Part shown: positions 6,849 to 61,803 of the stretch, in pieces
Layout: the number at the start of each line of letters is the position of its first letter
How positions within the stretch are numbered: position 1 is the stretch's first letter
Assembly (NCBI GenBank): GCA_019326865.1
Contig: GCA_019326865.1_4101.1
DNA from: a phage
DNA length: 64,000 nt
Direction: 5' to 3' (one strand)
Notes under the pieces: model-generated
Databases searched by the model: none
What the model was told of the DNA's origin: nothing
The model's input: only the letters and a program-made list of their open reading frames with translations
Made by a program: the position numbers and the translations under genes

Positions 6849-7964
6849 ATGTCTAAATTAGAAAAGCTTCTAAAAGAATCATCTCTTTCTGATGAGGCAA
6901 AACAGCTAATTCAGGAAGCATGGAATGAAGAAAAGAACACACTAGCCGCAGAGATGCGTGAAGAAATGAAAGGCCGTTATCAGCAAGATTTGGCTGAACT
7001 AACCGAAGGATTGAACACTATGGTTACTCAAGTCATTGCTGAAGAAATGGGTGCTGTATATGAAGAGAAAAAACGTCTTGTTGAAGATCGTGTAACTCTA
7101 CGTAAAACACTAAGTAATTTCTCTGCGTTTTCAAATTCTGTTTTGGCTGAAGAAGTTAAACAAATGCGTAAAGAGCGTAAGCATCTACATGAATGCATGG
7201 GTAAATTCGTTAATTTTTCTAACGGTATCCTAGCAGAAGAACTAAAAGAATTCCACACAGAAAAACGTCAACTGGTTGAAGCTCGTGTAAAATTACTTGC
7301 AGAAGGTTCACGTCAAATTGCTGAAGCTCGTAATAACTTCATCAAACGTACATCTGAAAGTGCTGCTAAATATATTGCAGAGACAACACAGAAGAATCTA
7401 TATGCGTTAAAACAAGATCTAGTGGAAGCGAAACAAAATATGTTTGGTCGTAAAATCTTTGAAGCATTTGCTCAAGAATTTAATGTCAAACAATTCAATG
7501 AAAATTCATTGCTACGTTCACTAACTGAAACAATTAAATCTAAAGAAGATGAAATTGATCAAGTTAAGCAAGAACTACATGAAACTGTTAATGCGGTCAA
7601 AGCTGCTAAAACTAAACTACGTATTATGGAAGATGCACAAGCCCGTAATGCGATTATGTCTGAACTAGTAAAACCACTAACTGCACAGCAAAAACAAATT
7701 ATGGAATCCCTTCTAGCAACTTCACCTACTGAAAAGCTTAAAGAAGATTTCAGTAAGTACCATAAGTCAGTACTTAACGGTACTAAAGTAAATGAATCTG
7801 CTACCACTCGTCAAGCAGTTCAGTCTTCCGCTAAGAAAACTCTTGCAGAAGGTAAAGTGATCACTGGCAACCGTCAGGCTATTGTTGAAAGCGAAGAAAT
7901 GACCGCTGACGATATGGCATTCCTAAAAGAACTCGATGTTCTTTCGGGTATCAATAAAAAATAA
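6849..7964 (+). CDS. gp22: prohead scaffold protein (gp22-like, coiled-coil)
   Basis: K/E/L-rich helical 371-aa ORF directly between protease and major capsid genes; RBS aaaggagag. Confidence 0.6.
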   Translation: MSKLEKLLKESSLSDEAKQLIQEAWNEEKNTLAAEMREEMKGRYQQDLAELTEGLNTMVTQVIAEEMGAVYEEKKRLVEDRVTLRKTLSNFSAFSNSVLAEEVKQMRKERKHLHECMGKFVNFSNGILAEELKEFHTEKRQLVEARVKLLAEGSRQIAEARNNFIKRTSESAAKYIAETTQKNLYALKQDLVEAKQNMFGRKIFEAFAQEFNVKQFNENSLLRSLTETIKSKEDEIDQVKQELHETVNAVKAAKTKLRIMEDAQARNAIMSELVKPLTAQQKQIMESLLATSPTEKLKEDFSKYHKSVLNGTKVNESATTRQAVQSSAKKTLAEGKVITGNRQAIVESEEMTADDMAFLKELDVLSGINKK

Positions 7965-8055: not shown

Positions 8056-9231
8056 ATGTCACAACTACTAAATGAATCCAAATGGGTAGCAGTAAAAGAG
8101 AAACTAGTTGAAGGTCTACAGGGTACTCGTAAGTCTGTAATGGAAACTGTTCTTGATAACCATCGTAAAGTTATGCTAACTGAATCCGCAACTTCTGGTG
8201 CAACTACCGCTGGTAATATCGCTACACTAAACAAAGTGATTCTACCAATTATGCGTCGTGTAATGCCAACTGTTATTGCTAACGAAATTATCGGTGTTCA
8301 GCCTATGACTGGTCCAGTCGGTCAAATTCACACCCTACGTGTACAATATGCTGATAATGCACCTGGTGTTATCGCTGGTGAAGAAATGCTTTCTCCATAC
8401 AAAATCGCTAAATCCTACTCTGGTGAACTAAATTCTGATAACAGCAATCCTCAAGCTGCTCCTACTAGCCAACTAGAAGGTACTATGGGTCGTCGCGTTA
8501 ACATCCGTATTCTACGTGAAACTGTTGAAGCGAAATCTCGTCGTCTATCTGCACGTTGGACTGTTGAATCTGCACAAGATGCTCAATCCCAACATGGTGT
8601 TGACGTTGAAGCAGAACTAATGGCTGCAATCGCTCAAGAAGTTACCGTAGAAATCGACCAAGAGCTACTAAGCCGTCTACGTGCACTACCAGGTGCTGCT
8701 GCTGTAACTTATGACCAATCTAAAGTTACTGGTGTTGCAACCTTCGTTGGTGATGAGCACGCTGCTCTAGCAACTCTAATTAACCGTCAAGCAAACGAAG
8801 TTGCTCGTCGTACTAAGCGTGGTGCTGCAAACTGGGCTGTTGTTTCCCCAACTGCACTAACCATTCTACAATCTGCTACTACTTCTAGCTTTGCACGTAC
8901 CACTGAAGGTACTTTCGAAGCACCAACTAACGTTAAGTTTGTAGGTACTCTAAACAGCACTATGCGTATTTTTGTTGATACTTATGCAAGTGATTCAGAA
9001 GATATTCTAATTGGTTATAAAGGTAATGCAGAAACTGATGCTGGTGTGTTTTATTGCCCATACATCCCACTAATGGCGTCCGGTACTGTAATGGACCCTA
9101 ACACTGGAGAACTCGTAACCACTTTCTTAACCAGATACGGGTACGTTCAGTTGACCGATAGCACCAGTTCACTAGGTAACGCTGCTGACTACTACAGCAA
9201 AATCGCTATCAAAAACGTTACTTTCATGTAA
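8056..9231 (+). CDS. gp23: major capsid protein (T4 gp23 family, compact 391 aa)
   Basis: IANEIIGVQPMTGPVGQIHTLRVQY vs T4 gp23 IAFDICGVQPMNSPTGQVFALRAVY; RILRETVEAKSRRLSA vs RIDKQVIEAKSRQLKA; ILIGYKGNAETDAGVFYCPYIPL vs FTVGYKGPNEMDAGIYYAPYVAL. Confidence 0.9.
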   Translation: MSQLLNESKWVAVKEKLVEGLQGTRKSVMETVLDNHRKVMLTESATSGATTAGNIATLNKVILPIMRRVMPTVIANEIIGVQPMTGPVGQIHTLRVQYADNAPGVIAGEEMLSPYKIAKSYSGELNSDNSNPQAAPTSQLEGTMGRRVNIRILRETVEAKSRRLSARWTVESAQDAQSQHGVDVEAELMAAIAQEVTVEIDQELLSRLRALPGAAAVTYDQSKVTGVATFVGDEHAALATLINRQANEVARRTKRGAANWAVVSPTALTILQSATTSSFARTTEGTFEAPTNVKFVGTLNSTMRIFVDTYASDSEDILIGYKGNAETDAGVFYCPYIPLMASGTVMDPNTGELVTTFLTRYGYVQLTDSTSSLGNAADYYSKIAIKNVTFM

Positions 9232-9274
9232 TATTGATTTTTGTAGAATTTATAGAATAAAAAACTTTTATACT

Positions 9275-9302
9275 AGGGACTCTTCGGAGTCCCTTTTTTT
9301 TG
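9275..9302 (+). terminator. rho-independent terminator after capsid gene
   Basis: agggactc-ttcg-gagtccct hairpin followed by a T-run. Confidence 0.75.
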
Positions 9303-9324
9303 GTTTTTATATAACTAAAAGATC

Positions 9325-9353
9325 TTGACAGCACTTAACAATTGTAGTATCAT
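9325..9353 (+). promoter_or_regulatory. sigma70-like promoter TTGACA-N17-TATCAT
   Basis: ttgaca at 9325-9330, tatcat at 9348-9353; sits upstream of the GTG start at 9388. Confidence 0.5.
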
Positions 9354-9387
9354 ACGTGTAAATAAAGAAAAGAACTCGGAGAAAATC

Positions 9388-10983
9388 GTGTTAGAAGAAA
9401 TCAAGAAGTTTTTATCAGAGAAAAATGTTCGTGGTGTTAAATCTGCTCTGCAAGCAAAATCTGTATACATTGAATTCCTGCGAGAGATGTTTGGTGATAT
9501 CGATCTTAATGAAATGATTTATATGGTATTGAATGATATTACTTCAGTGCCGAATGCTGAATGTGGTGACAAAGCTAAGTTTATAAGTATTACCGAAGGA
9601 TATTCTTACAAGTGCAATAAACCATTTCAAGGAAAAGGAAAATGCCTTATCTGTTGCTCCGCAGTTGCTAGGAAACGTAAAGAAACTTACAAAGAAAAAA
9701 CTGGTTATGATAACCCGGCACAGAATCCAGAAATTCAAAAGAAAATAGGGTATACCAATGAACAACGTTATGGCACTCGTATTGCTCAACAATCTGAACA
9801 AGTAAAGCAGAAATCAATAGAAACTAATATCAAAAAGTATGGCGTTGTTCATCCATCACAGTTGGAAAGTAATAAACAGCAACGTTTACAAACTGTACAA
9901 GAAAAGTATGGTATCAATAATGTATGGCAACTTAATAAAGGTCTTAGTGCACGTTATGAACAGTTTAAAACACGATTTGAACAGGATGGTAAATTTACTC
10001 TTTTAAGTGATGAATCCCATTATGATAATAGCAATGACGCAACTCATGCAATCATGCACTGGAAATGTAATGAATGTGGTAATGAGTTTGATAAAGTTGC
10101 TCTTTGCTTACGCTGCCCTAAGTGTGAACCATATTCATCCAGTACTGAAGAAGTTAATCTTTATAATTACATTACCTCTATCTATAGTGGTGTTGTTATT
10201 CAAAACAGCCGCAACATAATCAAAGGTAATGAAATTGATATTTTCATCCCAGAACTGAAACTTGGTATTGAGTTCAATGGTGAGTACTGGCATCGTGATG
10301 AAGTTCGTGGTAAAGACTATCATCAATCCAAATACTTCAAAATGAAGGAAGCAGGATACAAACTTATCACTATCTATAGTAATGAATGGTCAAATAAAAC
10401 TGAAATTGTTAAGAATCGTTTGAAAAGTTTGATTAGTGTGGATAGTAAAATCTATGCTCGTAAGTGTGAAGTTAGATTGGTTGTACATGAAGAATGTGAT
10501 AAATTTTTGTATGAACATCATATTCAAGGACCATGCCAATCATCAATCAAACTTGGACTTTACTATAATGATGATTTGGTTGCTTTGATGACATTTGGTG
10601 CACCACGATTTAACAAGCAGTATGAATATGAATTACTGCGTTATTGTTCTAAAGGAACAGTTGTTGGGGGTGCATCGAAACTGTTAAAACATTTTGAACG
10701 TATGTATCTTCCTAAATCTCTTCTTTCATACGCCGATATGAACTGGAGTACTGGTAATTTGTATGAAAAAATTGGTTTTACTTTAGAAGAAGTAACTCAA
10801 CCTGGTTATTTTTACTATGATAGAAAAAACGAAGTTGTTTATTCTCGCCATCAATGCCAAAAACAAAAACTTATTAAAAAATATAATTTTGATAGTTCTA
10901 TGACAGAGAAGGAAATGACAAAAGAATTAGGATACTTTAGAATCTATGATTGTGGTAACTTAGTTTATAAAAAGATTTACTAA
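9388..10983 (+). CDS. multi-domain putative nuclease, paralog 1 of 3 (Cys clusters, YGV repeats, Vsr/DUF559-like PD-(D/E)xK core, conserved C-terminal domain)
   Basis: GTG start with RBS ggaga 5 nt upstream; N-terminus VLEEIKKFLSEKN aligns with paralog 3 MIIDELKKFLKSKN; core motif IDIFIPELKLGIEFNGEYWH; C-terminal domain shared with 30327..31931 and 44978..46729. Confidence 0.7.
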   Translation: MLEEIKKFLSEKNVRGVKSALQAKSVYIEFLREMFGDIDLNEMIYMVLNDITSVPNAECGDKAKFISITEGYSYKCNKPFQGKGKCLICCSAVARKRKETYKEKTGYDNPAQNPEIQKKIGYTNEQRYGTRIAQQSEQVKQKSIETNIKKYGVVHPSQLESNKQQRLQTVQEKYGINNVWQLNKGLSARYEQFKTRFEQDGKFTLLSDESHYDNSNDATHAIMHWKCNECGNEFDKVALCLRCPKCEPYSSSTEEVNLYNYITSIYSGVVIQNSRNIIKGNEIDIFIPELKLGIEFNGEYWHRDEVRGKDYHQSKYFKMKEAGYKLITIYSNEWSNKTEIVKNRLKSLISVDSKIYARKCEVRLVVHEECDKFLYEHHIQGPCQSSIKLGLYYNDDLVALMTFGAPRFNKQYEYELLRYCSKGTVVGGASKLLKHFERMYLPKSLLSYADMNWSTGNLYEKIGFTLEEVTQPGYFYYDRKNEVVYSRHQCQKQKLIKKYNFDSSMTEKEMTKELGYFRIYDCGNLVYKKIY

Positions 10984-11000
10984 AATACGGGAGAATACGG

Positions 11001-11351
11001 ATGTTAACTGTATACAAATTTAACAAAGAAGAGTACTTAAAGAGTCAGTACTCAAATATAGAAATAAATGTTCCTTATGGTACGTTAGTTGGATATGATG
11101 AAGCCACTGAAACATTGTATTATAATGATGATAGATTGGATTATAGTTTAGATTCTTTCATAGAAGATATACTTAATACACAAACTGAAGATATGTTGTA
11201 TGAAGAATACATCGATCATTATAGAGAACGTATGTCGGTGCTGCATTCTGATGCTCCTGTACTAAACATAGCACAAGAACCATCGGAATTTCAGCCACAT
11301 AATCCTTTTCAACGTTTAATTGATATTGGTTTAAAATTCACTATTAGTTGA
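11001..11351 (+). CDS. hypothetical protein
   Basis: 116-aa ORF with RBS ggagaa upstream; no motif recognised. Confidence 0.4.
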   Translation: MLTVYKFNKEEYLKSQYSNIEINVPYGTLVGYDEATETLYYNDDRLDYSLDSFIEDILNTQTEDMLYEEYIDHYRERMSVLHSDAPVLNIAQEPSEFQPHNPFQRLIDIGLKFTIS

Positions 11352-11390
11352 TAGATAAATATCTCCATATTAATGATGGAGATTGAATCT

Positions 11391-11699
11391 ATGTCACAGA
11401 TATGTTATGTTATAATAAACTCTGCATGGCCTGACTATGTTAAGATTGGTTTCACTTCTAAATCTGAAATGACAGAGCGTTTGAGAACGTATCAGACAGC
11501 TACCCCGTTTCGTGATTTTGAAGTTTATCATGAAGTTCACTTTGAAGACGCACGTTTAGCTGAAAAAGAGATACATAAAAGGCTTAAACAAATGAATGCA
11601 ACTAGACAACCAAACACGGAGTGGTTTAAAATGTCTAAAAAAATAGCAGCAAACATCATTGATTCTGTGTGGGATGATATGGATAACGACTTGCTATAG
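11391..11699 (+). CDS. T5orf172 / GIY-YIG-superfamily-like small protein
   Basis: ICYVIINSAWPDYVKIGFT...RLRTYQTATP...EIHKRLK...EWFK fits the T5orf172 pattern as I recall it; RBS ggaga 9 nt before ATG 11391. Confidence 0.5.
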   Translation: MSQICYVIINSAWPDYVKIGFTSKSEMTERLRTYQTATPFRDFEVYHEVHFEDARLAEKEIHKRLKQMNATRQPNTEWFKMSKKIAANIIDSVWDDMDNDLL

Positions 11700-11739
11700 G
11701 AATAAATATAGTATATATTAATCATAAAGGGATTTATAC

Positions 11740-13335
11740 ATGAGCATAAGTTTTAATAACCCATTGGATACAATGACCAGTACTGGTGCTAATGGTTCTT
11801 TAGAATTAATAGTGCTTGGTGGTTCACCAACTAATCCAAGACCTATTCGTTTTAATTCGTCATCAGTCATTATACCAGTAAAAACATTACCTACTGGTGA
11901 GCAAGGTGCAATGGTTTTTGATAGAAATGAATTAGTTTTGAAGTATCATAACGGTACAAGTTGGGTTGCAGTATATGATACTGATACTATTTTGGAACCA
12001 ATTAGAATTTCATTGGATGAAGTAAATCGAAAATTAAATTTAAAAGTAGAAACCGTATCATATAGTAGCAGTGCTGTTCCAAGTGCAAGTATAAGTGGGA
12101 CTAATTTAAATATTGTATTCCCTACTGTAGCTACTGGCGGTTCAGGACCAACTGGACTTTACACTTCACTAAAACCTGGTGCTATTACACAATACGCATT
12201 GACATCTGGACAAAACGTTGCTAGTATACGTGAACAAATGTCGGGTCAAACCAATGGACAAAATGGTCGCAATGGCTCACAAGGTTCTCCGTGGAAAACA
12301 TCTGATGGTTGGTGTTTTGCTGATGGGATGTGGTGGCAATGGGAAGGCGAAAATGGTACAATTACTAAACAAGTACCAAACCTTAACAGAAACGCGTATT
12401 TAAAAGGAATATCCACATCAGGTGTAACTCAAATTGATGGTGTTATTAGTAGTAGTGGAAACATTAGCGGAACTGTTTTAAGTGTAGCACAGTTGCCATC
12501 TCACTCATTCAGTTTTAGTGGGACTACTAGTGCTGCTGGTCGTCATGGTCATAGTCAAGCACTAAAAGGTAATGACCGTAGTGGTCTAAATGCAATAACG
12601 TCGAGTAGAGATAATGGTATTCCAACTGTAATCAGTAATATTAATGAAGCACCTGACCACGTACACTCATTTAGTGGAAACACAAACACACTTGGTGGAA
12701 ATCAGCCACATTACCATAGCATTAGTAACGTTGATGTGGAACACTTTAACGTTGCATACCTATATAATATTGCTGAATCTAACGTTGCATTGAGCGAAAA
12801 AGTTGCAAATAAACGTTATGTACTGAAAACTGGTGATACAATGACTGGCTCATTGACTATTGCAAATAGTGCATCCATACAGTCAAATGATACATCATTA
12901 GTTCTTTATTTCCGTAATGCAAGTGGGGGCGAACGTGCAGCGGTATATCATAACTCATCAAACAACACCTTGAGATTACGTTCTGGTGGTGCAGAAGTAG
13001 CTGTAAACTCTTCGGGTAACTTGTCTGCTCCATCTTTAACTGTTTCTAATAACTCAGCTACTGTTGGTGGCAAAAATATTGTTCGTTCGATTAACGGAAA
13101 TGCAGCAGATGGTAATGGTAATGTGAATATTAAAATTGAAACTGGTGCAATTACTGCTATGAAATTTGGTGGTAAACAACAACTTAGTGTTTCTGATAAC
13201 ATATATCGTTCAGGATGGGTAATCACTGGTTGGGCAAATGGTGATAAAAAAGAACTACGTGGTGCTGGTTATTGGTCTGCTCCATTGTATTATTTGATTG
13301 GTAGTTCTTGGTACATCATCCCAACCGATAATTAA
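11740..13335 (+). CDS. putative tail fiber protein
   Basis: Ser/Thr/Gly/Asn-rich 531-aa protein containing KTGDTMTGSLTI, a motif recurrent in phage tail fibers. Confidence 0.5.
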   Translation: MSISFNNPLDTMTSTGANGSLELIVLGGSPTNPRPIRFNSSSVIIPVKTLPTGEQGAMVFDRNELVLKYHNGTSWVAVYDTDTILEPIRISLDEVNRKLNLKVETVSYSSSAVPSASISGTNLNIVFPTVATGGSGPTGLYTSLKPGAITQYALTSGQNVASIREQMSGQTNGQNGRNGSQGSPWKTSDGWCFADGMWWQWEGENGTITKQVPNLNRNAYLKGISTSGVTQIDGVISSSGNISGTVLSVAQLPSHSFSFSGTTSAAGRHGHSQALKGNDRSGLNAITSSRDNGIPTVISNINEAPDHVHSFSGNTNTLGGNQPHYHSISNVDVEHFNVAYLYNIAESNVALSEKVANKRYVLKTGDTMTGSLTIANSASIQSNDTSLVLYFRNASGGERAAVYHNSSNNTLRLRSGGAEVAVNSSGNLSAPSLTVSNNSATVGGKNIVRSINGNAADGNGNVNIKIETGAITAMKFGGKQQLSVSDNIYRSGWVITGWANGDKKELRGAGYWSAPLYYLIGSSWYIIPTDN

Positions 13336-30326: not shown

Positions 30327-31931
30327 ATGATTGATATATCCAAATTATATAATATGATAAAAGACATTCCCCATCCTAATTCTCGTAAAAAAATACTAAT
30401 GGGGGAAATTTCCGAAGAAGATATGATGGAGTTCGGAACAACTGAATTAAAGCAGATTGATTATTGTATAATGAATAAATTAAAACATGTACCATTAGCA
30501 CCGTGCGGGGAAAATAAAAAATACCATAATGGAAAATATTTGAATGTATGTGAAAAATATAAACTTGGTGACAATCATTCATGTATAGTCTGTCATGAAA
30601 ATAAGACAAAAGAAACATTATCTAAAATGAAGAAAACTTCTTTATCTAAATATCAAACTGAATTTCCTAATCAGTCCATTGATGTAAAAAGAAAGATACG
30701 AGAAAATTCTAATTTTACTGAAGATGAAAAAAACGCAATTAATGAAAAGAAAAAAGAAACATCATTGAAACAATTCGGTACTGAACATCCAATGAAGAAT
30801 AGTACTGTTAAGTTGACACAAATTCAGTCCAGAAAAAAGACACAAGAGCAAACTAACAACAAAAGAATTAAAACTTTAATGCAGAAAAAAACATTAAATG
30901 TTTCTGAAAATTTGGATAAATCAAAATATGAAATTGTTGAATTGCGATTGGGGACTAATGTAAAAAGTACATTCAGGTGTTTACAGTGTGGACAACAATT
31001 TGATGCATTAAGTCATTGGGGATGTAAAGTTGTTTACTGTCCACAATGTGATGTTTCACCTATGCGTTCTAATATGGAAAATGATGTTGTATCTATCATA
31101 AAAGAAATAGAACCAACTATTGATATTGAACTTAATAATAGAAAAATCATAAAACCAAAAGAAATAGATATATATTTGCCTAAGTATAATTTGGGTATAG
31201 AAGTTAATGGAATGTACTGGCATTCTGATAAATTTAAGTCAGAAAACTATCATCAAGATAAAGTTAAAGCTGCTATGTCATCTGGAATGAAATTATTAAC
31301 AATTTATGATTATGATCTTTCAAAAAACAAAGATGTAATAGTTTCAATGATAAAAAATTCAATGAATAAATCTTCTTTTAATGTTTATGCAAGAAAATGT
31401 GAAATTAAAGAAGTACCTAAAGTTGAAGAACGTAATTTCCTAAACACCTATCATATTCAAGGATTTGTTGGTTCAAATATTTGTTATGGTTTGTATTATA
31501 ATTGCGAGTTAGTATCATTAATGTCTTTTGGTAAGCCAAGATTTAATAAAAATTTTGAATATGAAATTATACGATTTTGTTCAAAAGGTAATGTTGTTGG
31601 TGCAGCAGGGAAGTTATTAAAACATTTTGAGATAACTATCAAGCCTAAGTCATTGATTACATATGCTGATTTACGATATGGATATGGTAAAACTTATGAA
31701 AAAATAGGTTTTGAATACAAATATATTACTAAACCTGGATATTTTTATGTTAATGGAAAGGGTGATGTGGTTACTCGATATCAAGCACAAAAACATAAAC
31801 TTCTGAAGAAATACCCAGAATATCAAAATGAGACAAACATTACTGAATATGATATAATGGGGTCTGAAGGATATTTAAAGATATATGATTGTGGAAACGC
31901 TGTGTATGTGAAGGAATACAACAATGAATAA
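30327..31931 (+). CDS. multi-domain putative nuclease, paralog 2 of 3
   Basis: RBS gagg 6 nt before ATG 30327; core motif IDIYLPKYNLGIEVNGMYWH; C-terminal domain VYARKCEI...HIQG...FGKPRFNKNFEYEIIRFCSKGNVVGAAGKLLKHFE matches paralogs 1 and 3. Confidence 0.7.
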   Translation: MIDISKLYNMIKDIPHPNSRKKILMGEISEEDMMEFGTTELKQIDYCIMNKLKHVPLAPCGENKKYHNGKYLNVCEKYKLGDNHSCIVCHENKTKETLSKMKKTSLSKYQTEFPNQSIDVKRKIRENSNFTEDEKNAINEKKKETSLKQFGTEHPMKNSTVKLTQIQSRKKTQEQTNNKRIKTLMQKKTLNVSENLDKSKYEIVELRLGTNVKSTFRCLQCGQQFDALSHWGCKVVYCPQCDVSPMRSNMENDVVSIIKEIEPTIDIELNNRKIIKPKEIDIYLPKYNLGIEVNGMYWHSDKFKSENYHQDKVKAAMSSGMKLLTIYDYDLSKNKDVIVSMIKNSMNKSSFNVYARKCEIKEVPKVEERNFLNTYHIQGFVGSNICYGLYYNCELVSLMSFGKPRFNKNFEYEIIRFCSKGNVVGAAGKLLKHFEITIKPKSLITYADLRYGYGKTYEKIGFEYKYITKPGYFYVNGKGDVVTRYQAQKHKLLKKYPEYQNETNITEYDIMGSEGYLKIYDCGNAVYVKEYNNE

Positions 31932-44089: not shown

Positions 44090-44307
44090 TGAGAACAGTA
44101 ATGAATGTGTATGGTCACAATACGATGGTTTCTAATGAAGAATACAAACTATTACAAAAGATAAAAGCACGTGGAACTGTTCCAGTTGAAAAGGTTAATG
44201 AATATTATCAAGAACTTGCTGATAAAATGGTATCACGTGGTGTTCTAAATAAAATAGAAAATGTTGACGGTACTGAATCATATCAAACAGTTAGGAGTAG
44301 TAAATGA
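44089..44307 (+). CDS. hypothetical small protein
   Basis: ATG overlapping the upstream stop (TAATG). Confidence 0.3.
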   Translation: MRTVMNVYGHNTMVSNEEYKLLQKIKARGTVPVEKVNEYYQELADKMVSRGVLNKIENVDGTESYQTVRSSK

Positions 44308-44981
44308 ATTACGAATATGATCAACAATCAGTCAATCAGATGGCTGATTTGTTAAGTGGTCTTAATGATATTGAAGCTGGTGAGACACATGATGCGGCTG
44401 GTGTACCATATAAAGCTAGTGGTGATATTGGTGCAATGACTGCTATTTTAACTTCATTAAATGAAGCGGGTATGGATTATGGTATTGAACCTGAACAGAC
44501 ACATCCGAAGGTTGTGTCATATAACGCACCATTTAACGAACACATGAATGGACAACAACATGTTCAGCCTGTGATGCAACGTTCACCTTCTAAACCGAAA
44601 ACCAATTGGAGTTTAGTAGAAGAAAAGGTACAAGGCACGAAATCTACTAAAGTTTATAGTATTAAGTGTAACCATAGTTCACAAATTATCATGAATAATA
44701 TTATGATGTATGAAGCAGCACTTACTTTAGTTAACCTTCTTAACGAAGGGCGAATGTTGACAGATGCTAAAGTTCTTGGTATAATTAGTTCGGGTTTGCA
44801 ATACACAAATGTAATAAGCGAAGCATTAAAAGCAGCCCATAAACGCCAACGTGTACTTAATGAATCAAAGTATGATGAAGCAAAAGATTTAGATATAATC
44901 ATTGCAGAAAAGAAAGCAGAAGCGTATAAATTAAAAGAGCGTGTATTAAACTTTCTTAAAAATGAAGGGTACATCACTTGA
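44304..44981 (+). CDS. hypothetical protein
   Basis: 225-aa ORF. Confidence 0.45.
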   Translation: MNYEYDQQSVNQMADLLSGLNDIEAGETHDAAGVPYKASGDIGAMTAILTSLNEAGMDYGIEPEQTHPKVVSYNAPFNEHMNGQQHVQPVMQRSPSKPKTNWSLVEEKVQGTKSTKVYSIKCNHSSQIIMNNIMMYEAALTLVNLLNEGRMLTDAKVLGIISSGLQYTNVISEALKAAHKRQRVLNESKYDEAKDLDIIIAEKKAEAYKLKERVLNFLKNEGYIT

Positions 44982-46729
44982 TTATAGATGAATTGAAGAA
45001 ATTCTTAAAAAGCAAAAACAAAAAAACATGGGTTAAGTTGGTAAGCAATAATGAAGTGTATTTTAAATATGTTCGTGAATTATTCCCAACTAAACCCATG
45101 AATGAAGCATTGTATCTTATAATGAACGATATGGTATGTGCACCATCTGCCCCATGTGGCTCTGAATGTAAATTTATTAATGGTTCATATGATAAGTATT
45201 GTTCTAAGCCAACAAAACCAAACAAAAATCGTGATAATGGTTTTTGTGTAGTATGCAATGAGCATTGGAAGAACGCCAAACTCAAAAATACTAAACAAAA
45301 ATGCCTTGATGCTTATGGAGTCGAATATCATTGGCAAAGAAATGATGTGAAGGACAAAATAAAAAGTACTAATATGAAACGATATGGCGTTGAGCACAAT
45401 TCGCATATCGAACATGTTCTTGAAAAAAGAAAGGAAACCTTCATTAAAAGATATGGTGTTGAATCACCTTTAGCATCTGTTGAAATTCGTGATAAGATAA
45501 AAGCAACAAACATTGAAAAATATGGTGTTGAAAATTATGGAAGTACTGATGAATGTATAGAAAAACGAAATAAAACAATGATGGATTTATATGGTGTTAA
45601 TAATGCACAACATGTAACGAAATTTTTAAATGAATCAAAGGTTACGAAAGCTAAAATTAGGTATGATAAAATTTTATCTATTATTAACCCTTCATATAAA
45701 GAACTTTTTGAATATGATGACTTGATAGATTCAACTAATGAAAGTAAACTTCCGTATTATTGTGAAATACACAAAGGGCTGTTTTATAGTAATTATAAAT
45801 ATGGTATAGTTTGTAGTGTTTGTAATCCACCCGTGTATAGTTCCATACAAAATGAAATAAAGAATTTTGTATCAACATTGACTGAATGTGACATTATTAT
45901 GAATGATCGAAGTAATGGGTATGAATATGATATATACATCCCTGAACTCCAGATAGCAATAGAAGTTAATGGAATGTATTGGCACAAAAGTGATATGGTT
46001 GATAAGTATTATCATAGGACAAAAACAATAAATTCGATTGAACGTGGAATTAGATTGATACATATATTTGAAGATGAATGGTACAGTAAACAGGAAATTA
46101 TTAAAAATAGATTAATGAACGTTTTTCAATGTTCTAGTAAGATTTATGCCAGAAAATGTATTGTTAAAAAAATTAACACAAATATTTGTTATGATTTCTT
46201 GAACACTAATCACATACAAGGATATACTAAAACTGGAATAAACTATGGTTTGTTTTATAAACAAGAACTGATTGCAGTAATGACGTTCAGTAAAAGTCGA
46301 TATGATAAAAAATTTGAATATGAGCTAATACGATATTGCTCACGTGGAACGGTTGTTGGTGGGGCTGGTAAATTATTGTCTGCATTTGAGCGTGATTACA
46401 AACCATTGTCGTTGATGAGCTACGCAGACTTGAATTGGGGTTCTGGGCAGTTATACATATCTCTTAATTTTGAAAATTTGGGATATACCGAACCCAAATA
46501 TTTTTATTATGATCCAAAAACAAAACAGCGTTTTTCTAGACAAAAATTTAGAAAACATAAATTGATTGAAATGGGCCACGACTCATCTAAAACTGAAGAA
46601 GAGATATGCTTAGGTGAAATTGGATTGTATAAAATATACGATTCTGGCAATTGCAAATTTGCTAAATATTATTACAACATAAACATTACAGGAGATATTG
46701 AAAAATGTCCAAATCGTACAAAAAACTAA
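44978..46729 (+). CDS. multi-domain putative nuclease, paralog 3 of 3
   Basis: TTG start overlapping the upstream stop, RBS gaaggg 8 nt upstream; YGV repeats (RYGVEHNSH, RYGVESPLA, KYGVENYGS, LYGVNNAQH); core motif YDIYIPELQIAIEVNGMYWH; C-terminal domain conserved with paralogs 1 and 2. Confidence 0.7.
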   Translation: MIIDELKKFLKSKNKKTWVKLVSNNEVYFKYVRELFPTKPMNEALYLIMNDMVCAPSAPCGSECKFINGSYDKYCSKPTKPNKNRDNGFCVVCNEHWKNAKLKNTKQKCLDAYGVEYHWQRNDVKDKIKSTNMKRYGVEHNSHIEHVLEKRKETFIKRYGVESPLASVEIRDKIKATNIEKYGVENYGSTDECIEKRNKTMMDLYGVNNAQHVTKFLNESKVTKAKIRYDKILSIINPSYKELFEYDDLIDSTNESKLPYYCEIHKGLFYSNYKYGIVCSVCNPPVYSSIQNEIKNFVSTLTECDIIMNDRSNGYEYDIYIPELQIAIEVNGMYWHKSDMVDKYYHRTKTINSIERGIRLIHIFEDEWYSKQEIIKNRLMNVFQCSSKIYARKCIVKKINTNICYDFLNTNHIQGYTKTGINYGLFYKQELIAVMTFSKSRYDKKFEYELIRYCSRGTVVGGAGKLLSAFERDYKPLSLMSYADLNWGSGQLYISLNFENLGYTEPKYFYYDPKTKQRFSRQKFRKHKLIEMGHDSSKTEEEICLGEIGLYKIYDSGNCKFAKYYYNINITGDIEKCPNRTKN

Positions 46730-60476: not shown

Positions 60477-60671
60477 ATGGCAGACAAAACATTTTATGAT
60501 CGTATTATTGAAGACAAGGGAGTTTTTGATAAGGTGGTTTATGACTTAGAACTTATGATCAAAGACGCACCAAATCCACGAGTACGAACACAAGCAGAAT
60601 TTGCAAAAACTTATCTTGTTCAAGTTCAAGCAATCTGTGAAGCAATTAAAAAACACAATGATAGAACTTGA
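60477..60671 (+). CDS. hypothetical small protein
   Basis: RBS ggag upstream; 64 aa. Confidence 0.4.
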   Translation: MADKTFYDRIIEDKGVFDKVVYDLELMIKDAPNPRVRTQAEFAKTYLVQVQAICEAIKKHNDRT

Positions 60672-60696
60672 CAGAACCAACGTTCTATCCTATAAT
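60668..60696 (+). promoter_or_regulatory. consensus sigma70 promoter TTGACA-N17-TATAAT
   Basis: ttgaca at 60668-60673, tataat at 60691-60696, exactly 17-bp spacer; upstream of the IF3-like gene. Confidence 0.7.

Positions 60697-60740: not shown

Positions 60741-61803
<1,063 letters not shown>

Follow-up and report, generated by a model that had tools for sequence, protein, structure and literature searches.

I-Bth0305I is an intron-encoded enzyme in which N-terminal NUMOD2/HTH motifs precede a nuclease domain at the end of the protein, and Hef-type enzymes belong to the same I-Bth0305I (EDxHD) family (Taylor 2011). Hef itself was described from phage U5, and Hef-like enzymes are found in T4-like, Campylobacter, Dickeya (F-LimIII/VII/VIII/X) and jumbo phages. 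According to a review, the gene cut by Hef is nrdB, which T4 MobE also targets. In T4, homing endonucleases are regulated by hairpins that sequester the ribosome binding site (RBS), by terminators and by stop/start overlaps; at mobE the overlap, UAAUGA, is regarded as a translational coupling that limits synthesis of the endonuclease (PMC2988022).

Phage Mu Mom is a tRNA-dependent DNA adenine glycyl-transferase with a GNAT fold (PDB 8bv8; Pfam PF25680), and fusions of Mom to a restriction endonuclease (Mom-REase) in jumbo phages have been read as restriction-modification-like (Iyer et al. 2021). In the literature that we searched, this reading and the label 'Hef-like homing endonuclease' were not found connected, and of the four papers that mention Mom, GNAT and 'homing endonuclease' together none is, by its title and abstract, about phage Mom or Hef.

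In this paper we describe the third of three paralogous genes (P1, P2 and P3) in a window of 64 kb, the whole stretch of DNA that was analysed, which is from an Asteriusvirus, a 121Q/PBECO4-like E. coli jumbo phage. We conclude with good confidence that P3 is a free-standing Hef-like homing endonuclease gene (HEG) that lies between homologues of gp26 and gp27 and starts at TTG 44978.

Results

Locus and gene

P3 is flanked by two complete open reading frames, i.e. it does not reside in an intron or intein, and these neighbours are conserved virion-module genes homologous to 121Q gp26 and gp27. The features of the locus are as follows.

44304..44981, plus strand: upstream gene, ending with TGA 44979-44981
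44757..44785, plus strand: sigma-70-type promoter match within the upstream gene, TTGACA-17-TATAAT with a TG extension, 12 of 12 matches
44978..46729, plus strand: predicted Hef-like homing endonuclease coding sequence (P3), 583 aa, assigned by PHROG 3339 and by identity to UE-S1
46673..46729, plus strand: lineage-specific tail of 18 aa and stop, formed by reading through what was once the intergenic spacer, with low pLDDT

The PHROG 3339 'homing endonuclease' profile matches P3 at full length (aa 3-564, E 4.2e-134), the 'putative homing endonuclease' of phage UE-S1 is 98% identical to it, and more than 4000 homologues were found, with phage records labelling the homologous core 'Hef-like homing endonuclease'. 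PADLOC returned 'homing endonuclease' as its sole model, and an NCBIfam scan of P3 gave no meaningful match. A profile of the family matches the catalytic domain of I-Bth0305I (3r3p_A) with E 1.7e-7; the match is significant with the profile, whereas a PDB search with the single P3 sequence gave only a weak match to 3r3p (E 0.089). The PHROG and I-Bth0305I matches support the original prediction of a nuclease of the homing-endonuclease type. With a dN/dS of 0.11 for the whole gene and 0.029 for the nuclease domain relative to the orthologue in phage ph0011, the gene is functional rather than decaying.

The promoter match precedes TTG 44978 by 221 nt and is one of only 11 sites in the 64 kb that score at least 11 of 12 against the sigma-70 consensus. 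It is a possible early promoter reading into P3, and since it is also kept in HEG-less 121Q it is older than the HEG insertion. No T4-type late promoter (TATAAATA) was found upstream of P3, the only nearby copy being intragenic, at 45794. At the 3' end, the downstream gene starts at ATG 46705 and overlaps P3 by 25 nt, served by AGGAG at 46690-46694 in the P3 tail region; the L007 and L008 orthologues terminate at KYY(R/I)* and retain the spacer.

Domain architecture

Five parts of the protein precede the tail.

44978..45262, plus strand: four-helix domain (aa 1-50) and Cys4 zinc finger (C60, C75, C90, C93; aa 55-95), from AlphaFold models
45275..45682, plus strand: YGV (DUF7487) array of five 23-aa helix-loop units and a capping helix, presumed DNA-binding module
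45749..45832, plus strand: zinc ribbon (C262, H265, C279, C282), from the alignment, with beta hairpins in the AlphaFold model
45842..46132, plus strand: Vsr/EDxHD-type nuclease domain (E316, D318, E329, N331, H336, H346, K349), from the profile match to 3r3p_A
46139..46672, plus strand: GNAT-fold Mom-like domain (F407, H412, R452, G461, G464, D484, Y493), from the top Foldseek match

Models of the N-terminal four-helix domain and Cys4 finger reach pLDDT values of 92.8 and 96.3, and the four finger cysteines are invariant across the three paralogs. The array that follows had been described as the richest of the three copies, with four YGV units. It is the richest, but it holds five exact units, at aa 113, 136, 159, 182 and 205 with a period of exactly 23 aa; P1 has one exact motif and P2 none. 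Across the family the number of units ranges from 0 to 15, with a median of five. The repeats of P3 are lysine-rich, and no tandem duplication at the DNA level was found among them, so the repeats are old. The array lacks structural relatives in the PDB and our literature search found no mention of DUF7487. The YGV repeat is a widespread, structurally uncharacterised and probably DNA-binding module. In the zinc ribbon C262, C279 and C282 are nearly invariant in an alignment of 54 sequences, as are C279 and C282 in one of 123 sequences.

In the nuclease domain P3 has the family consensus residue at E316, D318, E329, H336, H346 and K349. D196, E206, N208 and H213 of I-Bth0305I align with D318, E329, N331 and H336, and of these D318, E329 and H336 are nearly invariant in the family. 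The fifth EDxHD residue of I-Bth0305I, D222, aligns with His346 of P3 in an HMM sequence alignment, and histidine occupies this position in 122 of 123 sequences. Pfam scans of 54 relatives found MTES_1575 in 30, Vsr in one and DUF559 in one; NUMOD families were absent from the scans of these relatives and of P3.

For the C-terminal domain the top PDB match in Foldseek is phage Mu Mom (8bv8_A, E 1.6e-6, TM 0.50 on the target). The Pfam Mom family PF25680 matches nine of the 54 relatives (best E 1.8e-6) and, at E values up to 10, none of the C-terminal domains of P1, P2 and P3. Mom residues W48, R111, S124, D149 and Y159 align with residues conserved in the family: R111 is R in 122, S124 is S in 92, D149 is D in 118 and Y159 is Y in 122 of 123 sequences, and the family consensus at R111, S124, D149, R151 and Y159 is R, S, D, R (by plurality) and Y. 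In a weak hhalign match (E 0.008) P3 keeps R452, D484 and Y493 at the Mom-essential sites and has Gly464 for S124 and Asn486 for R151. The position of the Mom catalytic serine is Ser in P1 and Gly in P2 and P3. The classical GNAT Gly-x-Ala loop (G461, A463) is kept in the P3 family, whereas it is absent from Mom. A Mom-like domain has no part in the classical homing model.

Distribution and the other two copies

P3 is missing from most relatives. Among 38 related records only UE-S1 and ph0011 match the query at full length; a further 28 of the listed records align with about 68% of it, as two separate segments, and in two of these, 121Q and BF17, which were read at the junction, a spacer of 33 nt stands in place of P3. 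Four phages that are more distant and known from metagenomes carry positional homologues with 39-54% identity at this gp26|gp27 junction. Compared with ph0011, the window is about 93% identical in the P3 gene and 81-97% in the flanks, and a check for co-conversion showed only a mild peak of identity (97%) at the 3' junction. The identity of P3 is only slightly above that of its flanks, so a recent transfer is not clearly demonstrated.

The other two copies are found elsewhere in the window.

9325-9353, plus strand: promoter-like TTGACA-17-TATCAT of P1, with a terminator-like hairpin and T-run upstream
9388..10983, plus strand: P1, GTG start, GGAG 6 nt upstream
30327..31931, plus strand: P2, ATG start, GAGG 6 nt upstream, between UvsX-like and UvsY-like genes

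For P1 the GTG at 9388 is preferred over a longer reading frame from TTG 9325 because the latter codon sits in the TTGACA -35 box. Both genes are as sporadic as P3. P1 is present at full length only in UE-S1, its site being occupied in other Asteriusviruses by GIY-YIG or T5orf172 nuclease genes, and P2 is missing from all 51 matching phage records. P1 is 36% and P2 34% identical to P3.

Three reading frames of the same architecture in one 64-kb window could be taken for recent duplicates within the genome, P3 perhaps being the decaying one. The pairwise identity of the three copies, which had been proposed as a means to date their duplication, does not serve that purpose, because each copy is more similar to the homologues that occupy its own site in other phages (49-54% identity) than to the two other copies in this genome (34-37%). 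This pattern contradicts a recent duplication, and the low dN/dS of P3 together with its intact catalytic residues speaks against decay, making such an origin extremely improbable. Judged by these identities, the three copies are old, site-specific lineages.

Translation start

Two features define the start of P3.

44964..44969, plus strand: GAAGGG, Shine-Dalgarno-like, which doubles as the codons for the conserved ...EG... of the upstream protein's C-terminus
44978..44981, plus strand: TTGA, in which the TTG start of P3 overlaps the upstream TGA stop, from the sequence and the UE-S1 annotation

The original prediction placed the start at TTG 44978-44980, overlapping the TGA at 44979-44981, with GAAGGG 8 nt before it as RBS, and both placements were borne out. 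No in-frame ATG upstream extends the gene, and a longer reading frame is impossible because of an in-frame TGA at 44963-44965, 12 nt upstream. As had also been claimed, the N-terminus MIIDELKKFLKSKN aligns with that of P1 from GTG 9388 (VLEEIKKFLSEKN); it also aligns with the N-termini of the positional orthologues, whose start sites fall at most one codon from TTG 44978. GenBank already lists the UE-S1 orthologue with its start at this TTG. The first in-frame ATG, codon 41, lies inside a conserved folded domain and was rejected as the start, residues 1-50 being conserved, under purifying selection and confidently folded. GAAGG is present in HEG-less 121Q and BF17 as well as in all HEG+ orthologues. 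We found no evidence of an RBS-sequestering hairpin as in I-TevI: the fold of 44930-45040 has -11.3 kcal/mol, z = -0.02 against shuffled sequences.

Translation might instead begin one codon later, at ATT 44981, which matches the ATG start of the ph0011 orthologue nucleotide for nucleotide and would yield a protein equal to the orthologues in N-terminal length; the phage moreover has its own homologue of IF3, the factor that polices such codons. In E. coli, however, ATT initiates about two orders of magnitude less well than ATG, and TTG about one order less well, so that ATT is far the weaker initiator of the two. The Shine-Dalgarno spacing to ATT would be 11 nt against the usual 8 nt for TTG, and L007 has an ATG at the position of the window's TTG (an ATGA overlap), which makes ATT its codon 2. 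We consider initiation at ATT quite unlikely and retain TTG 44978.

The Shine-Dalgarno sequence for TTG 44978 would then be supplied by the final codons of the preceding gene, and given this arrangement and the TTGA overlap, P3 is probably initiated weakly and in translational coupling with the termination of that gene. By analogy, the overlap is a feature with a described precedent in the UAAUGA of T4 mobE.

Discussion

Start codon and expression level

A TTG or GTG start on a putatively toxic nuclease had been read as a means to keep expression low, as described for some phage homing endonucleases. The main review on how T4 homing endonucleases are regulated (PMC2988022) describes other devices and not non-ATG codons. 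The start codon is also not conserved, the six positional orthologues having ATG, ATG, ATG, TTG, TTG and GTG; at the P3 site ph0011, L007 and L011 have ATG, L008 has GTG and L010 has TTG. What stands is an enrichment of non-ATG starts in the clade. They occur in 4 of 10 independent lineages, compared with 13 of the 130 other genes annotated in UE-S1 (Fisher p=0.02), none of 50 neighbouring genes on the same metagenomic contigs (p=0.0097) and, pooled, 13 of 180 neighbouring or other genes (p=0.0067). Given this enrichment, low expression of P3 through its non-ATG start is plausible.

In a selfish gene with its start squeezed into the 3' end of the preceding gene, relaxed selection on initiation efficiency accounts for the flipping of start codons equally well; ATG, TTG and GTG would then interchange by drift with no adaptation to low expression. 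The mixture of three ATG, two TTG and one GTG among the orthologues is what such drift would leave, GTG and TTG also start about 10% of the other annotated UE-S1 genes, and ph0011 has CTG opposite the window's TTG and ATG opposite its ATT, which resembles turnover between adjacent codons. The excess over neighbouring genes is nevertheless significant (p = 0.007-0.02), P1 uses GTG despite having its own promoter and Shine-Dalgarno sequence and no overlap constraint, and several negative controls on T4 homing endonucleases are documented (PMC2988022). We give drift a little under an even chance. The small but significant excess of GTG and TTG, together with starts that flip, offers a concrete test case for the low dosing of selfish nucleases.

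Homing or restriction-modification

As a homing endonuclease, P3 would recognise a long DNA target in HEG-less genomes with its N-terminal half, its Vsr/EDxHD-type nuclease would cut that target, and recombinational repair from an HEG+ genome would copy the gene in. The Mom-like GNAT domain might help to recognise DNA by flipping bases, or might modify it.

It is this last domain that allows P3 to be seen primarily as a restriction-modification-like weapon, with a Mom-like domain that would modify the phage's own adenines and a nuclease directed at host or competitor DNA lacking the modification. In fold the domain matches Mom best, Pfam Mom is found in nine of 54 relatives, R, S, D and Y stand at Mom-essential positions in most of the 123 sequences, and the prediction has been published (Iyer et al. 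2021). Such a weapon does not fit the sporadic presence of these genes at precise intergenic sites, their site-specific lineages across diverged phages or the sharing of the P1 site with other homing-endonuclease families. At the sites of the Mom-essential S124 and R151, P3 carries Gly and Asn, PADLOC offers only the 'homing endonuclease' model, and Hef cleaves nrdB, a target gene shared with T4 MobE. We therefore hold a primarily restriction-modification role to be unlikely, and prefer the homing endonuclease.

To our knowledge no Hef-like protein is known to modify DNA. A more speculative proposal, which we put forward tentatively and consider rather doubtful, is that Hef-like enzymes are bifunctional, with an active Mom-like module for DNA modification or base flipping, and, separately, that the YGV/DUF7487 array is a modular reader that works repeat by repeat. 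If so, the Mom-like module would either protect the genome that carries it from cleavage by its own enzyme or serve to recognise the target, YGV copy number (0-15) would set target length, and P1 (Ser) and P2 and P3 (Gly) would be natural variants at the Mom catalytic serine. These three variants in one phage could settle the choice between the homing and the Mom-REase readings.

Comparison with known systems

P3 is an already known kind of element: its 98%-identical copy has been annotated from this TTG, and large phages commonly encode Hef-like endonucleases, hence as a gene it matters little. Relative to I-Bth0305I it is free-standing, has other DNA-binding modules before the nuclease and carries a Mom-like domain after it. 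With mobE and other free-standing endonuclease genes of T4 it has in common a start codon that overlaps the stop of the upstream gene, although MobE is an HNH enzyme and its gene starts with AUG within UAAUGA, whereas P3 starts with TTG within TTGA. The Hef-like proteins belong to the same PHROG and have a homologous core of nuclease and C-terminal domain (aa ~288-563) that is 27-42% identical. Short Hef-like proteins are without the N-terminal extension of the P3 subfamily (helical domain, zinc finger, five YGV/DUF7487 repeats and zinc ribbon), and Hef-like genes and P3 are alike in being free-standing, intergenic and sporadic, often with several copies per genome.

Translation start of the third paralog

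The third paralog is best read as the gene of a free-standing Hef-like homing endonuclease, with weak translation predicted from a TTG start. A tblastn search of its protein against the window recovered two more copies, paralog 1 (match at 9385-11001, 36% identity, E = 3e-100) and paralog 2 (30432-31925, 34% identity, E = 8e-74). The genes are as follows:

9388-10983, + strand, paralog 1, GTG start
30327-31931, + strand, paralog 2, ATG start
44978-46729, + strand, paralog 3, TTG start, 583 aa

As originally predicted, TTG 44978 overlaps the TGA (44979-44981) of the upstream ORF (44304-44981), TTGA being common to the stop and the start, and a Shine-Dalgarno-like GAAGGG (44964-44969) lies 8 nt 5' of it. 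A longer ORF from an upstream in-frame ATG with a ribosome-binding site was sought and is ruled out, because the frame is closed by a TGA at 44963-44965; the earliest in-frame ATG is codon 41. Residues 1-50 are kept among positional orthologues and have a confident fold in the structural model, and residues 1-100 are under purifying selection (dN/dS = 0.16 against phage ph0011), which places the start at or adjoining 44978. The proposed alignment of this N-terminus with that of paralog 1 was also found. RNA folding over the ribosome-binding site gave no significant structure. GAAGG forms part of the conserved C-terminal codons of the upstream gene and also occurs in phages lacking the homing endonuclease gene (HEG), so the insertion uses pre-existing sequence. 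Initiation at TTG would be weak, and translation is probably coupled to the upstream gene. A perfect match to a sigma-70-type promoter (12-of-12 consensus with TG extension, 44757-44785) within the gp26-like coding sequence is kept in HEG-less 121Q, in ph0011 and in UE-S1; it would be a host-type promoter amid virion genes.

In paralog 1, TTG 9325 opens the mechanically called ORF but was set aside since it forms the first three bases of a promoter match (TTGACA-17-TATCAT, with a terminator-like hairpin and T-run 5' of it); GTG 9388, with GGAG 6 nt upstream, is the credible start, as first proposed. Paralog 2 most likely begins at ATG 30327 (GAGG 6 nt upstream).

The start codon varies among lineages. 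The ph0011 orthologue has a TGATG overlap, its start ATG aligning with ATT 44981 and the window TTG with CTG; on metagenomic contig L007 the overlap is ATGA, and the orthologue's ATG falls where the window has TTG, with ATT as its next codon. Other positional orthologues begin with ATG (L011), GTG (L008) and TTG (L010), and two homologues of paralog 1 both with ATG. Counting these together with the three paralogs, non-ATG starts occur in 4 of 10 lineages, compared with 13 of 130 genes in UE-S1 (117 ATG, 8 GTG and 7 TTG annotated over the corresponding 96 kb, two endonuclease genes left out) and with 50/50 ATG among neighbouring genes on six metagenomic contigs (Fisher test, p = 0.02 for the UE-S1 background, p = 0.0067 for the two pooled); given a small sample of related lineages and automatic gene calling, the excess is no more than suggestive. 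This enrichment is consistent with the idea that such starts keep the expression of a potentially harmful nuclease low, but the start is not conserved, and the mechanisms described in a review of T4 homing endonuclease regulation (PMC2988022) do not include such control. The phage encodes an IF3 homologue (ATG, 60742-61244; Pfam IF3_N, E = 5e-16; IF3_C, E = 2e-13) with a perfect promoter match, TTGACA-17-TATAAT, just 5' of it (60668-60696). IF3 polices start-codon choice, and the homologue might be relevant to the phage's non-canonical starts.

Distribution, insertion site and age of the copies

The region around paralog 3 has its matches in E. coli jumbo phages of the Asteriusvirus type (121Q, PBECO4 and their relatives), most closely UE-S1 (96.8%) and ph0011 (91.1%), which alone carry the gene among the matches listed (38 matching records). 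In 28 other listed records about 68% of the 5.5-kb query is covered, in two pieces, and in 121Q and BF17 a 33-nt spacer lies between the flanking genes. Metagenomic homologues (P0002-P0005, 39-54% identity) occupy the same junction, between homologues of virion genes gp26 and gp27, in more distant phages, with synteny kept (DnaB, small genes, HEG, gp27-like gene, PD-(D/E)xK exonuclease). On one of these contigs (L010, metagenomic), the orthologue is followed, a few genes downstream, by a gene for the large subunit of ribonucleotide reductase (7682-7698 onward) that contains intein and LAGLIDADG endonuclease domains.

The L007 and L008 orthologues end in KYY(R/I)* and retain the spacer with an AAGGAAA ribosome-binding site, as in 121Q. 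This stop is absent from paralog 3, UE-S1 and ph0011, in which the ORF is 18 codons longer; in paralog 3 the extension crosses the former spacer, overlaps the next virion gene by 25 nt and includes that gene's AGGAG, and the 18-aa tail has low confidence in the AlphaFold model. In UE-S1 (record positions 8170-8325 and 357948-358076) an annotated terminal-repeat boundary lies 128 nt past the orthologue's stop, and the downstream virion gene is annotated there as two overlapping pieces; the explanation is an artefact of assembly or annotation, or else the genome ends beside the endonuclease gene.

Paralog 1 is flanked by the major capsid gene and the tail-fibre gene, and among matching phage records UE-S1 alone has it at full length. 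In other Asteriusviruses this site is taken by GIY-YIG, T5orf172 or 'endonuclease' genes, and the intergenic region (9232-11740) is a nuclease hot spot. Homologues with 48-51% identity to paralog 1 were found, one after a Gp23-type capsid gene. Paralog 2, between UvsX-like and UvsY-like genes, has no counterpart in any of the 51 matching phage records, the closest relatives UE-S1 and ph0011 among them, so that the insertion in this genome is new to the phage collection. Near this site UE-S1 has a different, 720-nt ORF. It had been proposed to date the duplications by pairwise identity; the copies share 34-37% identity and each is closer to its own positional homologues, so they are old, site-specific lineages and recent duplication is rejected.

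The T4 late-promoter consensus TATAAATA occurs six times in the window, always on the + strand (910, 6794, 8003, 18821, 32775 and 45794), below the chance expectation of 10.8. Three of these sites are 40-55 nt 5' of genes for structural proteins, among them the major capsid gene, which suggests T4-type late promoters.

Protein family and domain architecture

Paralog 3 matches PHROG 3339 'homing endonuclease' at full length (E = 4e-134), its orthologue in UE-S1 bears the name 'putative homing endonuclease', and the homologous core (aa ~288-563) is labelled 'Hef-like homing endonuclease' in phage records; the family is known and the gene already annotated. An AlphaFold model with the family alignment as input (mean pLDDT 92.8) comprises:

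four-helix N-domain
small beta zinc finger (C60, C75, C90, C93)
six helices bearing five repeats
zinc ribbon
alpha/beta nuclease domain
C-terminal alpha/beta domain
disordered 18-aa tail

The gene could be active or a relic. The latter was rejected, since dN/dS against ph0011 is 0.11 overall (zinc ribbon and nuclease 0.029, Mom-like domain 0.10, repeats 0.19) and all catalytic residues are intact; judged by its sequence, paralog 3 is evidently a functional gene. Synonymous divergence from ph0011 is 0.27 in the gene and 0.52-0.70 in flanking genes, but the identity profile is mosaic, so a recent transfer is only weakly indicated.

The repeat array is, as claimed, the richest of the three, with five exact YGV motifs rather than four (aa 113, 136, 159, 182 and 205; period exactly 23 aa), compared with one exact and some degenerate motifs in paralog 1 and no exact one in paralog 2. 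No tandem repeat was found in it at the DNA level. Pfam assigns the array to DUF7487 (E = 2e-19), present in 53/54 relatives; in a set of 878 units taken from 123 proteins, 566 adjacent pairs are 23 aa apart, and the consensus, E-[IV]-K-E-K-I-K-Q-T-N-L-E-K-Y-G-V-E-N-P-x-Q-S-x, has 4.6 Lys/Arg per unit. From this charge, the position within a nuclease and co-occurrence with other nuclease types we infer a role in DNA binding. Of most interest are this structurally uncharacterised module and the well-conserved Mom-like domain.

Comparison with known systems

The Mom-like domain is the C-terminal alpha/beta domain. When the whole model was compared with PDB folds, the DNA-modifying enzyme Mom of phage Mu ranked first (8bv8_A, E = 1.6e-6), ahead of many GNAT acetyltransferases. 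Pfam Mom (PF25680) matched 9/54 relatives (best E = 1.8e-6) and did not match paralog 3 itself. The hhalign match of the family to Mu Mom is weak (E = 0.008); nevertheless, Mom functional residues fall on the most conserved family columns.

Functionally important Mom residues (2026 Mom study), aligned paralog 3 positions by the weak hhalign match, and counts in the 123-sequence alignment
W48: F407, 123/123
R111: R452, 122/123
S124: position 464, Ser 92 and Gly 22 of 123
D149: D484, 118/123
R151: position 486, Arg 53 of 123 (plurality)
Y159: Y493, 122/123

Paralog 3 differs from Mom in having Gly464 and Asn486 at the S124 and R151 positions. Codon 464 (46367-46369), aligned to catalytic Ser124, is also Gly in UE-S1 and paralog 2, and Ser, the family consensus, in ph0011 and paralog 1. 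In jumbo phages, Mom domains fused to restriction-endonuclease-fold domains have been predicted to have a restriction-modification-like role (Iyer et al. 2021); in the searchable literature these fusions are not connected with 'Hef-like' enzymes.

For the nuclease, the 54-sequence family profile matched the catalytic domain of I-Bth0305I (3r3p) with E = 1.7e-7, and Hef-type enzymes were already assigned to the Vsr-like 'EDxHD' family (Taylor et al. 2011). Nuclease residues are nearly invariant among the 123 sequences, with paralog 3 at consensus in each. D318, E329, N331 and H336 align with D196, E206, N208 and H213 of I-Bth0305I, and His346 occupies the position of D222 in the profile alignment. 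The TTGA stop/start arrangement, in turn, resembles the overlap described for T4 mobE (PMC2988022).
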